Virus record (IMG/VR): IMGVR_UViG_2660238346_000033 | Length of the DNA: 37,514 nt | Strand: one strand, 5' to 3' | Origin: a virus | Lineage: Duplodnaviria; Heunggongvirae; Uroviricota; Caudoviricetes | Part shown: in pieces, positions 6,204-32,486 of the stretch | Position numbering within the stretch: the stretch's first letter is position 1 | How the letters are laid out: the number at the start of each line of letters is the position of its first letter | Position numbers and translations under genes: made by a program | The notes under the pieces: model-generated | What the model was told of the DNA's origin: nothing | Databases searched by the model: none | Seen by the model: the letters and a program-made list of their open reading frames with translations, nothing else

Positions 6204-8997
6204 TATCCGGGTCGCTTTCAGCGCCGTTGACAGGCTGACCCGGCCTGCCGAAAACGCCCGCCGCCTGATGGGGCAGTTTGGTGACTCCATCCAGCGAACG
6301 CAGGGGGCGATCAAAAATCTCGAGCGTCAGGCGCGTTCATTTGAGCGCGCCCGTGACGCTGTCAGTAAAGCGGATGCTGGCATCGTGAAAGCACGACGCC
6401 AGCTTAACGCCCTTAATCAGTTACAACGCACGGGTACAGTGCTCAGCGAAAAACAACAAAAGCTGATGCAGCAGTTAAGCACCCGGCTTGAACGCCTGAA
6501 TGAATCGCGCACACGGGAAATTCAGAAAATGCGGGAGCTTGGCGGAGAGCTGAAACGCCACGGCATTTCCCTGACAGGCAGCGATAACACCATCCAGCAG
6601 GCCATCAGACGCACCGAACAGTACAACAACCAGCTTGAACGCGAACGGCAGGCGCTTGCGCGTGTAACGCGGGCGCGTGAGCGGTATTCGCGCGCGCAGG
6701 AAACCGCGGGAAAACTGAAAACAGGTGGTGCGCTGGCAATTGGTGCTGCAGCGGCTGGCGGCTATGCTGCCGGGCGTTTTTTGCAGCCTGCGATCGGGTT
6801 CGGCAAAGAGATGTCCCGCGTTCAGGCACTGACGCGAATCGACAAAAACAGCCCGCAGTTTAAGGCGCTGCGTGAGCAGGCGTTAAAACTTGGTTCTGAA
6901 ACACAGTTTACTGCGAGTGATGCCGCCAGTGGGCAGAGCTTTCTGGCAATGGCTGGTTTTACTCCGCAGGCCATTCAGGCCGCATTGCCCGGTGTTCTTA
7001 ATATGGCGCTGGCAGGTGGCGTCGAACTCGGCGAGACGGCTGATATAGGCTCCAATATCCTCACACAGTTCAACCTGACAGCCGATCAAATGGACCGGGT
7101 TGGCGATACGCTGACAGCAGCATTCACCCGGACCAATACTGATTTACGCGCGCTGGGCGAAACCATGAAGTATACCGGTCCGGTTGCCGCAAAACTTGGT
7201 ATCAGTCTTGAAGAAGCGGCGGCCATGGCCGGGATGCTTGCCAATAATGGTCTTCGCGGAAGCGATGCTGGTACGGCCATGCGCGCAAGTCTGTCCCGCC
7301 TTGCATCACCGCCAAAAGCTGCGGCTGATGCACTGAAAGAGCTGGGGGTGTCAGTTGCTGACGCCAGAGGCAAAATGCGCCCGATGGAGGATGTGCTGCT
7401 TGATCTCTATAAGGCGACACAAAAATACGGACAGGTGGACCAGGTCTCCTTCTTCAAGGACATCGCCGGAGAAGAGGCGTTCGTTGGTTTGCAGACGCTT
7501 GTTGCGGCGGCTGGTTCAGGAGAACTGCAAAAACTGACCAGAGAATTGCAGGGGGCAAGGGGAGAGGCCGATCGCGTTGCAAAAGTAATGGCCGATAATC
7601 TTGATGGAGACCTGAAAAATCTCGACAGCGCATGGGAAGGTCTTCGTATTCGCATCAGTGATCTGGTTGACGGTCCGCTGCGTTCTGTCACGCAGTGGCT
7701 CACGCGGGTGCTTGAAAAAATCACCTCGCTGGCGCAGGCCCATCCGGTACTGACGCGCCAGCTACTGATAGCAGGCGGTGCGTTGCTGGCAATGACTGCA
7801 ACGATTGGCTCGTTGTCGCTGGTTATTGGGGTGCTTTACGGGAAGCTGGCCACCTTGCGTCTTGGTTTCGACATTCTTACCCGGTCAATGAATGTCATCA
7901 GGGTGTTGCCTGCGCTGTGGGGAATGGTGACGGGTTCTGTTTCTTTGCTGGGTGGTGCTATCGGGGCGCTGTTCAGTCCGGTTGGTCTTATCGTGGCTGC
8001 GCTTGCCGGAGCTGCCGTTCTTATCTGGAAATACTGGGATCCCATCAGGGCATTTTTTGCCGGGGTGTTCAGCGGGATTATGGAAAGGCTGACCCCGTTG
8101 CGTGAAACCTTTGAACGGTTTGGCCCTGTTTTTGACGCAATCGGAAGCGGGATCAGCCTGGTGTTTAACTGGTTTAAATCGCTGTTGTCACCGATGGAGT
8201 CCAGCAAGGAAACGCTGGATAAATGCACCAGTGCTGGCGAGATATTCGGTAACGTTCTTGGCGGTGCGTTACAACTTGTTCTGACGCCTGCAAAAATGCT
8301 ACTGGATACGCTGGCGTGGATACTTGAAAAACTTGGCGTCCTTCCGGATGAAGCGGAAAGGGCGCGCAAGAAAATCGAAGACGCACAGCGTGCGGCCATT
8401 CTTCAGGACAAGGTTGCCTTGCTTCAGGGGGACCTGGCGAAAATCAATCCGCCGAAGCCTGTGGAAAATGGCAATGGCACCGGAGGTGATAAACCCAAAG
8501 ACAACAAACCGCTCACAGACAGCAATACCGGTACGCTACGCAGACTCAGCAAAATTGCTGATAACACAGGTAAGCTGGTTGATGAGACGAAAAAACGCAT
8601 TGGCCCCGGCGATATTGTCTTTAAGAATCTGCCCCGCGCACTTGCTGTTCGTGGGGAGTGGCAGGAGCGGAAGATTGCGCAGGTCAGTAAGCCTGCTTCC
8701 GCAATCAACATCACACCCGTGGTCCCGACTCCTCTGCCTCTGGCGCTGGTCCCTGTTGTTGCGGCCAGCTCCCGCCCGGTGGCGGAGGCCATACGATCGC
8801 CAGTGGCATCAGTTCCTGCAACTTCCCGTAACCGGGAGCCTGTTGTCTCCGGATTTGGCGGTGAAATTCATGTTCATCTGCATAACGTTGTTACGCAGAA
8901 TCCCCGCGAACTGGCGAAACTGGTCGGTGAAATGGTCAGGGCAGAATTGGAACGACGCGACCGTGCCGGACGTGGCAGTTTTTACGATAAAGATTGA
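6181..8997 (+). CDS. T: tail tape measure protein (P2 gpT-like)
   Basis: 938-aa ORF with coiled-coil-rich N-terminal part and central hydrophobic/Gly-rich segments; position after E/E'. Confidence 0.9.
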   Translation: MQIMKTLDIRVAFSAVDRLTRPAENARRLMGQFGDSIQRTQGAIKNLERQARSFERARDAVSKADAGIVKARRQLNALNQLQRTGTVLSEKQQKLMQQLSTRLERLNESRTREIQKMRELGGELKRHGISLTGSDNTIQQAIRRTEQYNNQLERERQALARVTRARERYSRAQETAGKLKTGGALAIGAAAAGGYAAGRFLQPAIGFGKEMSRVQALTRIDKNSPQFKALREQALKLGSETQFTASDAASGQSFLAMAGFTPQAIQAALPGVLNMALAGGVELGETADIGSNILTQFNLTADQMDRVGDTLTAAFTRTNTDLRALGETMKYTGPVAAKLGISLEEAAAMAGMLANNGLRGSDAGTAMRASLSRLASPPKAAADALKELGVSVADARGKMRPMEDVLLDLYKATQKYGQVDQVSFFKDIAGEEAFVGLQTLVAAAGSGELQKLTRELQGARGEADRVAKVMADNLDGDLKNLDSAWEGLRIRISDLVDGPLRSVTQWLTRVLEKITSLAQAHPVLTRQLLIAGGALLAMTATIGSLSLVIGVLYGKLATLRLGFDILTRSMNVIRVLPALWGMVTGSVSLLGGAIGALFSPVGLIVAALAGAAVLIWKYWDPIRAFFAGVFSGIMERLTPLRETFERFGPVFDAIGSGISLVFNWFKSLLSPMESSKETLDKCTSAGEIFGNVLGGALQLVLTPAKMLLDTLAWILEKLGVLPDEAERARKKIEDAQRAAILQDKVALLQGDLAKINPPKPVENGNGTGGDKPKDNKPLTDSNTGTLRRLSKIADNTGKLVDETKKRIGPGDIVFKNLPRALAVRGEWQERKIAQVSKPASAINITPVVPTPLPLALVPVVAASSRPVAEAIRSPVASVPATSRNREPVVSGFGGEIHVHLHNVVTQNPRELAKLVGEMVRAELERRDRAGRGSFYDKD

Positions 8998-26476: not shown

Positions 26477-26995
26477 TCATTCGAAACTGGCAAGAATCTG
26501 TTCTCGAACAGAAGATTTCATCGTTAACCCACGATCTAGGAAAAATTGGAAATGCATTAAGGCTTGTTGTTTGTGTATAAGTCTCCTGCGCACAGCCTCT
26601 TGAAGTAGCCCTCCGTGGCGGGCGGCTTTTACACCGCGTTCCGCACACGTTTTATAAACCGCATTATCCGCCGAAAGACATGTTGCATCATGTATTCTCG
26701 CGTTAACAACGCAGCTTATGTCCGCATACTTCAATGCTCTCCTGCGATTTTTTATCTCAGCCATTTCAATAAAATGTTCAGGTTCGTAATCATTGGTGAA
26801 ATTGTATGGAAGTTGCAGGCGTGTAAGCTGTTCCTGAACATCAAGATTGTATTTAGCTTTTAGTTCCTCGCAGACATAGGGGTCAATCCACACACCACCC
26901 GGGTAAATTTGCCAGATAATATCTAAGCATTTACCTTCGTAAAAATCAGACAGTACATTCGTATCGATAACACATCTGGGGCATTCAAACGGCAT
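26477..26995 (-). CDS. PIN-like nuclease domain protein (candidate toxin/effector)
   Basis: N-terminal VIDTNVLSDF plus later acidic residues (E near 44, D near 104-123) fit the PIN pattern; GGAGAGG RBS; start overlaps the end of the upstream peptidase gene by 11 nt. Confidence 0.55.
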   Translation of the reverse strand: MPFECPRCVIDTNVLSDFYEGKCLDIIWQIYPGGVWIDPYVCEELKAKYNLDVQEQLTRLQLPYNFTNDYEPEHFIEMAEIKNRRRALKYADISCVVNARIHDATCLSADNAVYKTCAERGVKAARHGGLLQEAVRRRLIHKQQALMHFQFFLDRGLTMKSSVREQILASFE

Positions 26996-28130
26996 CCTCT
27001 CCGGCCTCCTGTTCGTCGTACCATTCATCCAGAAGATTGCTGAGAGCTTTTCTGTCTAATTCTAAAAGTTCAGATATGAAGGTTTCCGACGCGGAACCGG
27101 CTTCCCATGCTTTACGCGATAAGACGGTTAGGCGACCTTTATAATTTAGTGCTTCCCTAATGGGATTTGGCTCGTGTCTCTTCCAACCTTTACGATTGGC
27201 GGTTGCCCATAGGTATCTAGTGTTTTGTTGATTAATTAAATTACATTTACTAAGACGATCGATGATGCAAGTGGCTGATACTCTGAAAATGCTTTTTAGT
27301 CTAAGGACGGTTTCCTCATACGCCCATCCACCACCTTGCATGACGAATTGTTTTCGCAATGCGCTTTCTGGTACCAAAAAACAAGCAGCAAAGTGATTAG
27401 CAACTTTTTCTTCCGGTGAAATTGCTTTGCCATTAGTTTTATAGCTTTTAGCAGGGCCATCATACTCATCACGGTGGAAGATAAGATGAGCATATTCATG
27501 GCAAATACTGAAGATTTGACGTTCTATTGAAATGCTGTCGTGAACATTTACATAAATCGCGGTACCGTATTTGTTCGAAAACGCAGAAAATCCGAATACC
27601 ATCCCTTTATCGGTTTCTTCGCGATTGAACGGGATTACTCGAATATCCGATGCTTCCAAAATGGCTACAATGTCACCAACGCAAGTAGCGTTACCTATAC
27701 CAAGACGGAAACGTTCTTCCATAGCCTTATCTTCGACTCTTCGCAAATCTTCTGCTTTGGCGGTAAAAATAGGCATTGAGTTAGGAAGATCTTCTGGCAA
27801 ATTAGCATCAGCAGCTTCCTCAATTGCATTGATATTTTTTAACTTTTCAATCAACTCATTGCGAAGTTTGGCATCCAACAAATCCGGACTATCTGCCCGC
27901 ATTGCAAAACGAAACTCGCCATCATCTTGCTCATAAAAATACCCGATAGGCTTATCGAAAATCTTGCAGAGCATGATGAGTTGGGTAACGCTTGGGACGC
28001 CTAACGCCTGCTCAAACTTACTGTAGGTTTGACGAACAACACCGATCGCATCTGCGACGGCGCTTGCACTCATTCCCGCGTCGTTTCTGGCCTGAACCAA
28101 GCGTTCTGCTATACGCTGTTGAATGTTCAT
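26985..28130 (-). CDS. XRE-family HTH fused to ImmA/IrrE-type zinc metallopeptidase
   Basis: N-terminal HTH (QQRIAERLVQARNDAGMSASAVADAIGVVRQTYSKFE) and central HEYAHLIFH (HExxH) peptidase motif; AT-rich. Confidence 0.7.
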   Translation of the reverse strand: MNIQQRIAERLVQARNDAGMSASAVADAIGVVRQTYSKFEQALGVPSVTQLIMLCKIFDKPIGYFYEQDDGEFRFAMRADSPDLLDAKLRNELIEKLKNINAIEEAADANLPEDLPNSMPIFTAKAEDLRRVEDKAMEERFRLGIGNATCVGDIVAILEASDIRVIPFNREETDKGMVFGFSAFSNKYGTAIYVNVHDSISIERQIFSICHEYAHLIFHRDEYDGPAKSYKTNGKAISPEEKVANHFAACFLVPESALRKQFVMQGGGWAYEETVLRLKSIFRVSATCIIDRLSKCNLINQQNTRYLWATANRKGWKRHEPNPIREALNYKGRLTVLSRKAWEAGSASETFISELLELDRKALSNLLDEWYDEQEAGEDAV

Positions 28131-28284
28131 ACGTCACCTGAATTTAACAATGGTGGCTCTTATGGGTTTAGATTGGTTAATTATTACTAACATTATGAAT
28201 GGAGAGTTGCAAAAATCATAGTTAAATTATGCAAATTTCATGGAGCGTGATGTGGTGTGGGTTCACACTCTCTGCTGATTACAT

Positions 28285-28305
28285 CCAGGGCGGTTTCCGC
28301 CCTGG
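28285..28305. terminator. stem-loop downstream of parR
   Basis: CCAGGGCGG-TTT-CCGCCCTGG perfect 9-bp stem; no clear U-tract. Confidence 0.4.
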
Positions 28306-28314
28306 CTCTGCTTA

Positions 28315-28623
28315 CTAAGGAAATAGCGCCCGGATATTTCCGGCCATCTGACTGGTTATCTGTGCGGTTGGTACTGGCTGTGACACGGGGCGTTCTGTCC
28401 TGGTTTGTGTCACGGATAACGCCTCATCGTCAGCCCATGCAGCCAGTCGGTAAGCCTCTGCCGGATTCATTTTCAGAAGTGCCAGCCCGGCCAGAAAAGC
28501 CACGCGTTGGCCGCTTTTGCGGGCTTCTGGTGTAAGGCTGTCCAGCCAGGCGCATGCTTCGCCTTCGTTCTTGACGGCGGCGGGCTTCAGATAGAAACTT
28601 ATCCGTCTGGTTGGTGTCGTCAT
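28315..28623 (-). CDS. parR: ParR/StbB-like centromere-binding protein (ribbon-helix-helix)
   Basis: MTTPTRRISFYLKP...AWLDSLTPEARKSGQRVAFLAGLALLKMNP resembles plasmid R1 ParR; AAGGAG RBS; start 5 nt after parM stop. Confidence 0.7.
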   Translation of the reverse strand: MTTPTRRISFYLKPAAVKNEGEACAWLDSLTPEARKSGQRVAFLAGLALLKMNPAEAYRLAAWADDEALSVTQTRTERPVSQPVPTAQITSQMAGNIRALFP

Positions 28624-28627
28624 TGGT

Positions 28628-29587
28628 TTACTCCTTGTCCATTGCGTACAACCCATTAACCAGAGCAAACTGTGGCACCCCGTCCGCGATGAAAGTCGCA
28701 TTAACTCCGCAGGCTTCGCGGATAGCGGGTGCCACAATCTCCGCCCCGCCACCGACAACCATCACCCGCCCGTAACCCGAAAAACCCGCCAGCGCGCGGA
28801 TCACGCGTTGTTTCAGTGTTTCTTCCTTTTCACGAATAACCGCCATCAGGCTGGCGTAATGCGCGTCATTATGGATGTGCTGGCGCAGCCAGGCTTCATC
28901 ATGGCGATGTTCGATAATGGTATTGGCGATGTGGTGACTGGTGCGCATACCGTTAGTGGCCATCACCGACAGTACGGCATCGGCCATCAGAGAAACGCCT
29001 ACGTGTGGATCGCAAAACACCTGGCTGATACCTGCCAGTTGCCCCTGAACCTTTGCCACATCCAGCGTGGTTCCGCCCAAATCCACAATCAGCAGGGATT
29101 CAAACGGACTCATGTCAGCCAGTGCCTTAAAGCCAGCCGGAATGGATTCAGGCATAACCCGCACGTTACGGATAGTGAATGCTTCGCCGTGCTGGTACTC
29201 CACCGGGCGCATAACGTTCGCTTTTTTGCGGTTGATGTTGGCCATGTCCGGCTGTGCGTTTGTGTCGAAATACTCGCTCAGTGGCAGGGTGACAACCACA
29301 TCCACCTCCTGTGGCGTGATGCCTGATTTGACCAGCGCGTGATGAATGGCAATGACATTCACATCGCTGTACTGGTATTGCGTGTCGGTCGTCTGGACAA
29401 AGCGATCGCTGACCGGATCAAAACCATAGCGCACGCCATCAAGCATGTAGTTCGCGGGCTGCGTGCCACCGAACGGCGCAGACCATTCCGACTTGAAGCT
29501 GTTCGGGCTGATGGCGTTGCGGCGTTCGCCGTTCTCAGTCCATGCCAGCTTGATGTTGGTGGAGCCGTCGTCGATACAAATTTTCAT
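28628..29587 (-). CDS. parM: ParM/StbA-like actin-type segregation ATPase
   Basis: MKICIDDGSTNIKLAW... (phosphate-1), LIVDLGGTTLDV (phosphate-2), VMVVGGGAEIV (adenosine) motifs; N-terminus closely resembles R1 ParM. Confidence 0.8.
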   Translation of the reverse strand: MKICIDDGSTNIKLAWTENGERRNAISPNSFKSEWSAPFGGTQPANYMLDGVRYGFDPVSDRFVQTTDTQYQYSDVNVIAIHHALVKSGITPQEVDVVVTLPLSEYFDTNAQPDMANINRKKANVMRPVEYQHGEAFTIRNVRVMPESIPAGFKALADMSPFESLLIVDLGGTTLDVAKVQGQLAGISQVFCDPHVGVSLMADAVLSVMATNGMRTSHHIANTIIEHRHDEAWLRQHIHNDAHYASLMAVIREKEETLKQRVIRALAGFSGYGRVMVVGGGAEIVAPAIREACGVNATFIADGVPQFALVNGLYAMDKE

Positions 29588-29621
29588 GTCGCTTTTCCTT
29601 ATGTTGATTAATTAATCGTTT

Positions 29622-29714
29622 ACGGGATTCTGAAATCCCGTTTTTGCCTGTTTTGTGTGCGCTTTATATATCGCGGCGCGTTTTTTGCTCATTTACGGGA
29701 TTTGTGAATCCCGT
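29622..29714. repeat. two 20-bp palindromes flanking the parMR promoter (parC-like operator/centromere)
   Basis: ACGGGATTCTGAAATCCCGT (29622-29641) and ACGGGATTTGTGAATCCCGT (29695-29714); the second lies in the last codons of gene A. Confidence 0.55.
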
Positions 29715-32486
29715 TTCTGTCTGTTTTTTGTTTCCACTGGTCAGGCCACCCCGCAGCAGGTTTGCTTTGCGGCGGGCGCGTTCAGTGGTTTCACTGATTC
29801 TCTGTGCGTGCTCTGCGTCGCGGATGGCGCGCAGCATGTCAGAAAGTACGGTAACGGGTGTTTTCATGGTGTTCTGGTCTTGCTGAAGTGTGGATGCCAG
29901 GCGTGCGGCGGCTTCGGGGTCTGATGCCCCCAGCTGCTCCAGATAGCTGGCGACCGGGTTATGGCGGATCTCCGTGCTGCTTGCGCCGTGGTTACGGCTC
30001 AGGCGCTGCCAGAGCTGCGTGATCCGGCTGTCCGGTCGGGTATCCGGTTTGCGTACAATTTCAAATCCCTGCGGTGCAATGATGCTGCCGTCAACGTACA
30101 GACTGCCGCCCCGTAACAGGTGCTGCATTTGCTGTTCACCGATATGCAGGCCGAGAGATTCAGCAGACTCCCGCCATTCTTTAGCGAGTAATTCGTGGTT
30201 ATCAGGCAAAGGCCGCTGCTGTTTGCGGCTCTGTGTCCAGCTCTGCATTTCATCACTGCTGTTTTTTGCCTGTTTGTCACGAAGCGAACGCATCAGCGCC
30301 CGGCGTTCGTGCCGTTTCAGTGAGCGCATCCATTCGTTCACGTCAACGCCGTCAGGAAGCTGCGGCCACGGTGCTGGCCGTTCTTCCGGCTGTTCTGTCC
30401 CGTTGTTGTCCGTTTCCTGTACACGGGGACAGTTATTGCCACGAGTCCAAGGGGCGGCAGGGCCGCCCTGAAGGTCAAAACCATTTTCGCGGGCGCTGTC
30501 TTCCGCTTCCGGTTTACGTCTTACCAGCTTCCAGTTATCCGGGTGCGTGCACACGCGGGAAGATTCCCCGATTTGTGGCGACCAGATCCCGTAAATCTGT
30601 ACGCTTTGCTCGCCGTAATCGTTCAGCTCTTCTGCGAGGTCGTAGGCGGTGCGAATCAGGTAGTCTTTGCGTGGAACAAGTACGCCACCCTGTTTCTCAA
30701 TGTAGGTGGCAAAACACCCGGCATCAGCGGCAGCGAGTACCGCATCCATTGCGTCATTTTCCAGACGTTGTGGACCTTCCGGGTTGCGGGCCATCTGACT
30801 GGCAAGGCGGCGGAGTTCACGCCATACCTGACGGGAGGGGATACCAAAGAACTGGAACTGGCGGATGCGGTGAAGACGCGCCCAGCCGATGGCGCGTTCC
30901 ACGCTCTCGGCCATTGATTTTCCGGTTTCGTGGTCCACGCGTGGCTTGTCCGTTTTCGGGTCGATGCCATCCACGGCGCGGCTGTCCAGGTTCTTTCCGA
31001 TGTAGGTGGCGATGTAGCTGGTTGGCGTGCCTTTTGAGCCGTCGACATACTCCACCTTAAAGCGCGGAGTAATATCATTGCCCAGCTCGTGGCGGTCTTC
31101 CTGAATGGCAATATCGCGGGTATGGGACACAATGGTGTCGATTTCTTCCGGATGTGCAAAGACCATCATATGCCAGTGTACGGTGCCGTCATGATGAGGC
31201 TCCACCGTGCGGATGCCATACCAGCGCAGGTCGTCGCGGTTCAGTTTTTTGCGGACCGCCGCAAAAAACGTGTTAACCAGGTAATCGCTGGAGTCGCGCA
31301 TTGTGGCCCCGTTCCATTTGGGATTCGGATGACCGTTCTCCGTTGTGGCGTGGTATTTTGACGGGCAGGTGACAGTCAGAAACACCGCTTTGTCGCCACG
31401 GGCTTCGGCCAGAAGTTCCAGCCCCTTCATGGTGGCCATCATTTCTGCCTTACGGTGAACCGGGTTACTTACTCCCGCGTAATACACCGTCTCGAGATCA
31501 ATCGTGAACCCGTCTTCATTTTCCAGCATGAAACTTTTCAGGAAATCGCGTGTTTTCTCGCGCTGTGCGCGAAACTCGCTTAACGCGTCCTGGCTCAGAT
31601 AGGGCGATGTTTTTCTGGAAACCAGACAGGCGGCGCGGAGTTGTTCTTCTCTCCACTCGCAACGTAACAGCCACAGTTTGCGTTTCCACCATTCCGCACA
31701 GGTCAGGCGAAGGATTGCGCCCGGCAGCAGTTCTGTGTCCGGTTCGTGCCTCCGGTCTTTGTCTGTTGTCAGTGCGTCATAATGCGGAGGCATGGCGTGT
31801 AAGTGTAACGCCATGCGGGCCAGCATCTGATACGCCTTCAGCGTTACATCCATGGTCAGCTCGCCATTAGTCGCGCCAAAACCATCGCAGAGTTTTTCGA
31901 AGGTGCTGCTGAACATCGCCGCCGTCATGGTGGCCAGCGTCTGTATCTGGTGTTTGTTGAGTTGCGGCAGGTAAAGCAAATCGTCCAGGCGTTCACGTCC
32001 GGCAAGGGAGCGATAACCCGATGTCAGCCATCGGTGATCGGTGCGCTCCAGACGTTCGAATATTTTGCGCAGGGTCCCACGCGCATAGCGTTCTGCCTGC
32101 CTGGCGTTTTTTCCTTTCTGACGATCGGCTTCCTGTTTTTTGCGCAGGAAGGAGAGGTGGCGAATAAGCGGATCGCGCAGATAGGACGGCAGCAGGCGCA
32201 GTGAGGCCATGGCCTCATCTACCGCGCCGCGTGCCTGTTTTCTGGCGTCTCCTGCCAGTGTGATTGTTTTGTCCTGTTTTTCCTGTGCGTCCAGGCTTTT
32301 ATTAATCAGGTTGCCCAGCGGCGTGGCGGAGAACGCCGCATCAGCCATTTCCTGGCGGCGCTCGTTCTCTGCCCGGTAGGCATCCAGCCAGGAGGAAAGC
32401 GCGGATTCAGGAGCGGGGATCCCCGTTCCTTCACGCCCCACTGCGTGGCGCGGTTGTTGCCAGTCCCTGATGTACTCTGCCGTCAT
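29664..32486 (-). CDS. A: rolling-circle replication initiation endonuclease (P2 gpA-like)
   Basis: 940-aa ORF with HUH-type motif (VHWHMMVF) and conserved central region; longer than P2 gpA. Confidence 0.85.
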   Translation of the reverse strand: MTAEYIRDWQQPRHAVGREGTGIPAPESALSSWLDAYRAENERRQEMADAAFSATPLGNLINKSLDAQEKQDKTITLAGDARKQARGAVDEAMASLRLLPSYLRDPLIRHLSFLRKKQEADRQKGKNARQAERYARGTLRKIFERLERTDHRWLTSGYRSLAGRERLDDLLYLPQLNKHQIQTLATMTAAMFSSTFEKLCDGFGATNGELTMDVTLKAYQMLARMALHLHAMPPHYDALTTDKDRRHEPDTELLPGAILRLTCAEWWKRKLWLLRCEWREEQLRAACLVSRKTSPYLSQDALSEFRAQREKTRDFLKSFMLENEDGFTIDLETVYYAGVSNPVHRKAEMMATMKGLELLAEARGDKAVFLTVTCPSKYHATTENGHPNPKWNGATMRDSSDYLVNTFFAAVRKKLNRDDLRWYGIRTVEPHHDGTVHWHMMVFAHPEEIDTIVSHTRDIAIQEDRHELGNDITPRFKVEYVDGSKGTPTSYIATYIGKNLDSRAVDGIDPKTDKPRVDHETGKSMAESVERAIGWARLHRIRQFQFFGIPSRQVWRELRRLASQMARNPEGPQRLENDAMDAVLAAADAGCFATYIEKQGGVLVPRKDYLIRTAYDLAEELNDYGEQSVQIYGIWSPQIGESSRVCTHPDNWKLVRRKPEAEDSARENGFDLQGGPAAPWTRGNNCPRVQETDNNGTEQPEERPAPWPQLPDGVDVNEWMRSLKRHERRALMRSLRDKQAKNSSDEMQSWTQSRKQQRPLPDNHELLAKEWRESAESLGLHIGEQQMQHLLRGGSLYVDGSIIAPQGFEIVRKPDTRPDSRITQLWQRLSRNHGASSTEIRHNPVASYLEQLGASDPEAAARLASTLQQDQNTMKTPVTVLSDMLRAIRDAEHAQRISETTERARRKANLLRGGLTSGNKKQTETGFTNPVNEQKTRRDI

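Follow-up and report, generated by a model that had tools for sequence, protein, structure and literature searches.

Why should a bacteriophage that integrates into the host chromosome and replicates by a rolling-circle mechanism keep the segregation motor of a plasmid? The question is raised by a 37,514-nucleotide stretch of DNA (IMG/VR virus record IMGVR_UViG_2660238346_000033, Caudoviricetes; hereafter the window, meaning this whole stretch), which contains a P2-type prophage related to Escherichia phage P88. Directly downstream of the replication gene A of this prophage lies a pair of genes, parM and parR, preceded by two palindromes which resemble the centromere-like site (parC) of a plasmid partition locus. 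We therefore set out to analyse this locus computationally. We are in little doubt that it is a ParM/ParR type II (ParMRC) module belonging to the family typified by plasmid R1, and it is very probably both functional and under selection. It is also likely, as predicted from the sequence, that ParR binds the palindromes. That the cassette acts on excised or replicating circles of phage DNA, rather than on a stable plasmid, we consider to have an even chance of being correct or perhaps slightly better. The explanation taken as a whole, namely that this is a ParMRC DNA-segregation module of the P88-like replication/early region which serves extrachromosomal phage circles, is one that we favour with modest confidence.

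The cassette is real but it is not new. In RefSeq its genes already carry the product names 'plasmid segregation protein ParM' and 'plasmid partitioning/stability family protein' (in P88, 'plasmid segregation protein ParM' and 'partition protein'), and its occurrence has been mentioned in the literature (PMC9122126). With its genes annotated, its occurrence published and functional precedents available in an integrative and conjugative element (ICE) and in another prophage, the locus adds little as a discovery. What is new here is the anatomy and conservation of the sites, the domain logic of ParR, the measures of selection and the data that speak against life as a plasmid. A cassette that is so common and so strongly conserved poses the question with which we began, and the roles that may be considered for it are the handling of DNA during lytic growth, the inheritance of a transient episome, and a plasmid state. 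The answer likely lies within known precedents, and the system is a small one (two genes and four half-sites) found in P88, which is inducible and genetically tractable.

The parM and parR genes

The product of parM matches the Pfam StbA_N (3.6e-82) and ParM C-terminal (1.3e-68) domains, retrieves the R1 ParM structures 1mwk/4a62 in a phmmer search (1.6e-92), and is 47% identical to an R1-type ParM across 318 aligned residues. Its nucleotide-binding motifs are intact, comprising phosphate-1 (DDGSTN), the catalytic glutamate E148 (within MPESIP), phosphate-2 (DLGGTT) and adenosine (GGGAE), and the full 319 codons are present in all 76 of the IMG/VR contigs that were picked by ParM alone. A preliminary description of this locus had recognised a ParM/ParR type II cassette, which is borne out by Pfam, phmmer and hhalign. 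It had also named the placement of the 319-residue protein in a different actin-fold family, such as the sugar kinases, as the result that would speak against this assignment; such families are out, with the ParM domains scoring ~250 bits above all else. The best plasmid-borne ParM in PLSDB is only about 52% identical to the phage protein, and the ParMs of IncFIA/FIC, IncL/M and IncI-gamma/K1 plasmids stand at the same distance (~52% identity).

The parR gene begins at an ATG (28623) that is 4 nt past the parM stop and has GGAG 6 nt ahead of it. A 147-codon open reading frame with a TTG start, present in the program-made list, was considered as parR and rejected in favour of this 102-codon gene. 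The ParR protein matches Pfam PF10784 (Plasmid_stab_B; StbB/ParR) at 1.6e-24, and when a profile of its phage relatives was used in hhalign, residues 6-67 aligned with residues 5-66 of an R1-type ParR with 97.6% probability. Searching solved structures with ParR gave nothing at E <= 1, and tblastn using the phage protein revealed no plasmid ParR outside P88-like prophages.

ParR is laid out as an N-terminal DNA-binding domain, a linker (about residues 66-90) and a C-terminal N-I-x-x-x-F-P motif. Across 12 phage alleles the N-terminal domain (RRISFYLKP...QRxAFLAGLAL) and the C-terminal motif are invariant while the linker, of ~25 residues, is hypervariable. The same motif also ends the 138-147-residue ParRs of IncF, IncL/M and IncI plasmids. 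In the R1 system, ParM is bound by the C-terminal tail of ParR; the motif of the phage protein is placed like this ParM-binding tail, and the pattern of conservation would fit that of a working adaptor which would contact ParM in the same manner. Judged from sequence, the three parts of a ParMRC system appear to be present in this phage in their canonical order, intact and selected (Table 1).

ParR alleles are 52-95% identical to each other, while ParM stays 98-99% identical. Within the window, parR is mosaic over 28315-28569: DNA identity to one set of relatives (loci L005 and L016) ends at ~28569, which is parR codon 18, and from this break arise ParR alleles that are only about 52% identical. 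An exchange boundary of the neighbouring variable hotspot seems to run through the gene.

Table 1. Features of the parMR locus and their positions in the window
Feature	Position	Strand	Remarks
GC-rich hairpin, 9-bp stem	28285-28306	-	9 nt past parR stop; fold -25 kcal/mol, z = -4.1
parR, 102-residue adaptor	28315-28623	-	PF10784; profile-profile match to R1-type ParR
parM, 319-residue actin-fold ATPase (StbA/ParM family)	28628-29587	-	Pfam, phmmer, alignment
parC-like region, two 43-nt direct-repeat units	29616-29731		units 29616-29658 and 29689-29731
parM-proximal palindrome, ACGGGATT-CTGA-AATCCCGT = ACGGGATTCTGAAATCCCGT, candidate ParR site	29622-29641		34 nt upstream of parM ATG
Weak promoter-like hexamers TGAGCA-17-TATAAA, candidate only	29663-29691	-	read by eye; -10-like hexamer overlaps gene A stop
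Gene A, 940-residue rolling-circle replication endonuclease	29664-32486	-	Phage_GPA 3e-131 (Pfam)
Distal palindrome, ACGGGATT-TGTG-AATCCCGT = ACGGGATTTGTGAATCCCGT	29695-29714		within final codons of gene A

The paired palindromes

Two near-identical 20-bp palindromes lie exactly where the preliminary description had reported them. Both have perfect 8-bp arms separated by a 4-nt spacer (ACGGGATT-N4-AATCCCGT), and the core can be written as GGGATT-N4-AATCCC. Each is contained within a repeat unit in which an A-rich tract, on the parM-sense strand, is followed by the palindrome; the two direct repeats are 81% identical and are spaced 73 bp from start to start. These are the only exact matches to the palindrome in the 37.5 kb of the window, where shuffled sequences averaged 0.14 matches at <=3 mismatches. 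A search of the region, allowing one mismatch, found no further half-site or extra iteron.

Variation in spacer and flanks, but none in the core, is seen at the parM-proximal palindrome when relatives from E. coli, E. albertii, Salmonella and Hafnia are compared. Among the 76 ParM-selected contigs, the proximal core is perfect in 50 and the distal core in 42, with one mismatch and never more in those remaining, and the two palindromes are 73 bp apart in 73. We also assembled a set of 93 IMG/VR contigs by searching for the paired-palindrome pattern, of which 89 show the 73-bp spacing; the contigs that deviate, in this set and in the 76, fall within 72-74 bp. A P88-type A gene lies beside the pattern in all 93 and parM in 92. 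The contig that lacks parM (locus L090, ~6337-6381) is a degraded relative with gene A and both palindromes, in which codon 15 of parM is fused into the middle of the terminase gene. P88 itself has a distal palindrome that is imperfect by one base (GGGACT).

The Hafnia relative is informative as to what is being conserved. Its two GGGATT-N4-AATCCC cores are intact and 73 bp apart, and yet its gene A is in a different frame at this point and stops within the distal spacer. Given that the cores and their spacing have been kept despite the change in the frame of gene A, constraint acts on the palindrome DNA and not on the A protein. The comparisons support the view that the palindromes are conserved as might be expected of a protein-binding site. 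We found no co-variation between ParR allele class and palindrome variant, with both allele classes adjoining the same sites, which agrees with the invariance of the ParR N-terminal domain.

If the palindromes were not sites for ParR, they might instead act as RNA hairpins or terminators, or as elements recognised by the A protein or belonging to the origin. There are observations that would favour this, since both palindromes are scored as terminator-like when read along the plus strand, where a T-rich run comes after each, the region folds as RNA better than shuffled sequences do (z = -4.7), and the distal copy is found inside gene A. However, the T-runs lie on the strand opposite to that of A and parM, which has no gene ending there, and the sense strand has no U-tract. 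The single core changes seen among the contigs are not accompanied by a compensating change in the partner arm, and spacers and flanks are free to vary. Uncompensated core changes and the lack of a sense-strand U-tract argue against a role as an RNA hairpin or terminator, there is no credible Rfam match between 26000 and 30500, and the repeats bracket the region upstream of parM at a fixed 73 bp, a layout like that of R1 parC and of srpC. We regard this alternative as quite unlikely and keep to the prediction that the palindromes are bound by ParR.

The 3' end of gene A

The preliminary description had placed the second palindrome in the last codons of gene A, and this is correct. The gene passes through the distal palindrome, where it encodes T-G-F-T-N-P-V, and stops 29 nt beyond it (29664-29666), between the two palindromes. 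Its last 18 codons (29667-29720) are not conserved: the A protein is 62% identical to its Hafnia counterpart up to residue 922 and shows no similarity after this, and the tail past the palindrome is 18 residues long here compared with 4 in Hafnia, in different reading frames. The suggestion that an insertion had remodelled the 3' end of gene A therefore stands only in a limited sense. Since similarity stops exactly at the palindrome and is followed by tails in unlike frames, gene A just continues into parC as far as the first stop codon. Gene A, parM and parR are co-directional, with a gap of 76 nt between A and parM in which no minus-strand terminator-like site was found.

Distribution, age and selection

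The A-parC-parM-parR module is present in every P88-type phage record, with parMR next to A in 14 of 14, and the C-terminal 249 residues of A match precisely these 14 records. No A protein with the same C-terminus but without parMR was seen among phage records; a large protein search returned mostly fragments. The cassette occurs in 1308 of 5426 complete E. coli genomes (24%), and the P88-type A gene in 1432. Beyond E. coli the lineage that carries the phage-type cassette is narrow, being made up of Escherichia, Salmonella, Citrobacter, Hafnia and Cronobacter, and a scan for phage-type ParR using one genome per species located only four loci. Two of these four (L013 and L015) belong to assemblies that go under the names Vagococcus sp. 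and Fredinandcohnia humi, and in the second case the contig measures 229 bp; as these are implausible hosts for an enterobacterial prophage, enterobacterial contamination is the likely source.

We compared parM and parR with those of a Hafnia relative of the same synteny (locus L010) in terms of synonymous (dS) and nonsynonymous (dN) substitution. For parM, dS is 0.63 and dN 0.027, giving a dN/dS of 0.04, and parM is under strong purifying selection. For parR, dN/dS is 0.20 overall, and its final 8 codons contain 4 synonymous and 0 nonsynonymous changes; dS across the two genes is in the range 0.6-1.0. Between the E. coli and Hafnia lineages (loci L009 and L010), ParM is 94.5% identical, compared with 94% for the major capsid protein, 97% for terminase and 98% for portal (91-98% across the virion proteins), and the adjoining A protein is just 60-62% identical. 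On these figures ParM is conserved to the same degree as the proteins of the virion. The cassette is also old in the lineage, because parM has reached a dS of 0.63 relative to a Hafnia element of the same synteny and PLSDB holds no ParM that is more than about 52% identical to it.

These data bear on two terms used in the preliminary description, which had spoken of 'unexpected cargo' brought in by an 'insertion'. Neither fits a module that is fixed in the P88-like lineage beside gene A, is carried by around a quarter of E. coli genomes, and has the age just described. They also bear on the possibility that the cassette is an inert relic, passively carried since some old recombination with a plasmid. 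Other P2-like phages do without it and one degraded prophage (L090) has lost it, which is what a dispensable remnant might show. The low dN/dS values at this level of synonymous divergence, the intact parM in every ParM-selected contig, the virion-like conservation of ParM, and a ParR whose ends are kept while its linker drifts all run counter to this. The selection data effectively exclude relic status, and we give it almost no credence.

An integrated prophage

The element is a P88-like (Xuanwuvirus, Peduoviridae) P2-type prophage integrated next to the host pgsA-tRNA-Gly-Cys-Leu cluster. Its cassette region has 97-98% nucleotide identity to Escherichia phage P88 (NC_026014) and other Xuanwuvirus records (97.4% to P88 alone, where about 95% or more was the bar for calling it P88-like), and the C-terminus of A is 97% identical to those of P88-type phages. 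Integrase, portal and gpD domains were detected in the window, and the genes follow the P2-type order of P88: integrase, C, cox, early genes, A, parM, parR, variable genes, portal and terminase. The left edge of the window is host DNA, with pgsA and tRNA-Gly/Cys/Leu, and its right edge encodes a tyrosine integrase, so the element is an integrated prophage, in agreement with its first description as an integrating P2-like prophage. P88 too is an integrated prophage, which can be induced by mitomycin (PMC5285337).

It has been proposed by Rousset et al. 2022 (PMC9122126) that such phages are facultative phage-plasmids, in which the cassette would allow the phage to persist as a stably inherited low-copy plasmid. 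Two records could be taken to agree with this. NZ_CP148288.1 (locus L007), deposited as a circular 'plasmid' of 34,461 bp, corresponds to a whole P88-like genome in which integrase, A and parMR are all present, and a linear Shigella record of 26.8 kb is a second phage-sized replicon. The bulk of the data point the other way. In complete E. coli genomes, 1454 of the 1456 places occupied by the cassette are chromosomal and 2 are on plasmids. Matches in PLSDB are limited to 7 of 72,556 plasmids, mostly large replicons of 0.2-1.4 Mb, so that phage-sized ones are scarce. All matching records have an integrase and are sited at attachment sites, and no plasmid-type replicon is annotated, the sole replication gene being the rolling-circle gene A within a repressor-controlled early operon. 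The circular record may represent either a rare episomal state or phage DNA that has excised, and excision by spontaneous induction explains it equally well. A stable plasmid lifestyle is not supported by these data, and we think it improbable that the cassette serves one. ParMRC loci are carried by autonomously replicating low-copy replicons, while this one is integrated; this lowers the case for calling it a plasmid partition locus, but not the case for it working like ParMRC.

The position of parMR relative to the variable part of the prophage was also considered. Similarity to P88 and to many other relatives starts at position 28282 of the window, and the GC-rich hairpin just past parR marks the boundary at which the conserved module ends and variable cargo starts. 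The hairpin has no U-tract and its function as a terminator is a prediction. As variable cargo begins only beyond this hairpin, the A-Q hotspot of P2-like phages has parMR as its constant flank and not as cargo within it. We also tried the idea that parMR is one of the defence systems of this hotspot and rejected it, since neither ParM nor ParR has a match in PADLOC and the pair belongs to the constant flank rather than to the variable part.

A proposed role on phage circles

How might such a module operate? ParR dimers may occupy the four GGGATT half-sites, two in each palindrome. Within a palindrome the centres of the half-sites would be ~10 bp apart, and seven helical turns would separate the palindromes, presenting them on the same face of the DNA. 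Sites bound in this way may form a small partition complex that would also repress transcription into parM, so that parMR regulates itself. The C-terminal tails of ParR would then capture the ends of ParM filaments, and filament growth would drive the DNA copies apart. Rolling-circle replication of P2-type phages by the A nickase produces monomeric circles. The substrate would probably be the extrachromosomal circular phage genome, given that the prophage itself is chromosomal, that the A nickase yields monomeric circles and that parMR follows A without a terminator. As parMR comes immediately after A and no terminator separates the two, it should be expressed along with A following induction or infection. 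The benefit to the phage may be one of two kinds. The module could make replication, positioning or packaging of the circles efficient, as is the case for AlpAC of prophage CGP3, or it could ensure that both daughter cells inherit excised circles, as SrpMRC does for the SXT/R391 ICEs.

The closest relatives of the cassette are ParMRC of R1/NR1 (parA/stb) and the systems of related enterobacterial plasmids, which have a homologous ParM, a homologous ParR N-terminal domain and the same order of site, parM and parR, with the binding sites bracketing the region just upstream of parM. The ParR tail reads N-I-x-x-L-F-P in phage and plasmid ParRs and KKNAMKLIN in R1. The differences lie in the phage cassette residing in an integrating P2-type phage rather than a plasmid, in the length of ParR (102 residues with a shorter linker, compared with 117-147 residues in plasmid ParRs), and in the distal site overlapping the coding end of a replication gene. 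The site itself also differs, in that the phage has two 20-bp palindromes, and so four inverted half-sites, whereas R1 parC has two sets of five 11-bp direct iterons, of which two iterons suffice for ParR binding (PMC4949242).

By lifestyle, SrpMRC and AlpAC are the closest functional analogues, although their functions have been demonstrated and that of the phage cassette is proposed by analogy. SrpMRC, like the phage cassette, is a type II actin-type system found on an element that is normally integrated in the chromosome, and it stabilises the excised form of SXT/R391 ICEs (Carraro et al. 2015, PMC4489591). It acts on an excised circle replicated by rolling circle, and the repeats of srpC, four in all and both direct and inverted, are found in the 5' part of the motor gene; half-sites alone are not stably bound (PMC4489591). 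Unlike the phage cassette, which is a close homologue of the R1 family, SrpM and SrpR are related to R1 ParMR only distantly, with no similarity between SrpR and ParR; the SrpMRC element is an ICE with a relaxase, whilst ours is a phage with gpA. AlpAC, with its site alpS, is encoded by prophage CGP3 of Corynebacterium glutamicum and is required if the circular phage DNA is to replicate efficiently (Donovan et al. 2015, PMC4446434). Its genes are induced early after excision, and its adaptor binds a consensus upstream of the operon (PMC4446434). As in the phage cassette, the filament protein is actin-like and prophage-encoded, and the AlpAC adaptor is co-transcribed with it, but the actin-like family and the adaptor are different ones, the host is Gram-positive, and close kinship in sequence would not be expected. 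Nearer to hand, P88 and other members of Xuanwuvirus have the same module in the same A-parM-parR synteny, differing in the case of P88 in the cargo past parR.

Several points weigh against our explanation and need careful consideration. To our knowledge, classic P2, 186 and most other P2-like phages have no such module, meaning that P2-type replication does not in itself require one. The half-sites number only four and are inverted, compared with the ten iterons of R1 parC, which makes it uncertain whether the sites have centromere activity or are used merely for autoregulation. Single-base variants of the core are common, occurring in 26 of 76 proximal and 34 of 76 distal palindromes. A promoter had been thought likely between the palindromes, but a scan of this interval for the sigma-70 consensus returned none at its threshold; weak hexamers are all that can be read there, and the -10-like TATAAA is not kept in the Salmonella relative. 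An AlphaFold model of the ParR monomer, built on a 12-sequence alignment, had a predicted local distance difference test score (pLDDT) of 55, which is unusable and lends a ribbon-helix-helix fold no support. Finally, our literature searches found no functional study of this cassette, and the binding of ParR to the palindromes, the formation of ParM filaments and any phenotype are all inferred.

A further alternative is that the palindromes are a mere operator and that ParM and ParR have been recruited to something beyond segregation, for example stimulation of the A nickase or interference with incoming plasmids or related phages. There is a precedent in R1, where ParM and ParR bind and stimulate the TraI relaxase (PMC4949242). 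The small number of half-sites, flanking a region immediately upstream of parM, could be read in this way, as could the perfect co-occurrence of parMR with P88-type A, next to which it is always found and whose 3' end overlaps the distal site. On the other hand, ParR retains the C-terminal motif of plasmid ParRs and ParM all of its polymerase and ATPase motifs, as would be needed by a filament-adaptor pair, and PADLOC has no defence model for either protein. In addition, ParM is 94% and A only 60% conserved between lineages, which is unlike the behaviour of tightly co-evolving partners. The data do not call for co-option, and we judge it to be improbable.

Returning to segregation of phage circles, we can put forward a more specific version, which is speculative. 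A minimal centromere of four half-sites and an actin motor, present in a quarter of E. coli P2-type prophages, may work on the monomeric circles made by A, either spreading replicating genomes or keeping an excised circle that is not yet lytic in both daughter cells. In doing so it might be partnered with the A protein, the gene for which overlaps the centromere, as R1 ParMR is with TraI. If this version is correct, ParMRC would represent a replication or inheritance accessory in a phage family classically described as integrating.

Other features of the prophage

The host flank occupies positions 1-1002 of the window and contains a gene for a CDP-alcohol phosphatidyltransferase (pgsA-like) along with tRNA-Gly(GCC), tRNA-Cys(GCA) and tRNA-Leu(UAA). 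It is the 3' end of tRNA-Leu that the prophage adjoins, and in E. coli 55989 the opposite, integrase-side end faces yecA.

Right after parMR, the variable A-Q hotspot of this prophage (26477-28130, minus strand) holds a two-gene cassette with overlapping reading frames. The first gene encodes a 381-residue protein with helix-turn-helix (HTH) and M78 peptidase domains, which matches RmrA in PADLOC (2.8e-35) and also an spr1629-type antitoxin in NCBIfam; the second encodes a 183-residue PIN-like protein (Pfam PIN, 3.3e-5, and a weak match to PDC-S70). The pair looks like a RosmerTA-type toxin-antitoxin or defence candidate, and a similar HTH-M78 gene follows parR at another locus (L012). Between the tail and lysis genes (16274-18154, minus strand) there is a 626-codon open reading frame with DUF1737, SASA (sialate O-acetylesterase-like) and DUF6645 domains, for which PADLOC gave no match. 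P88 has only a short gap at this position, which marks it as a second cargo site.

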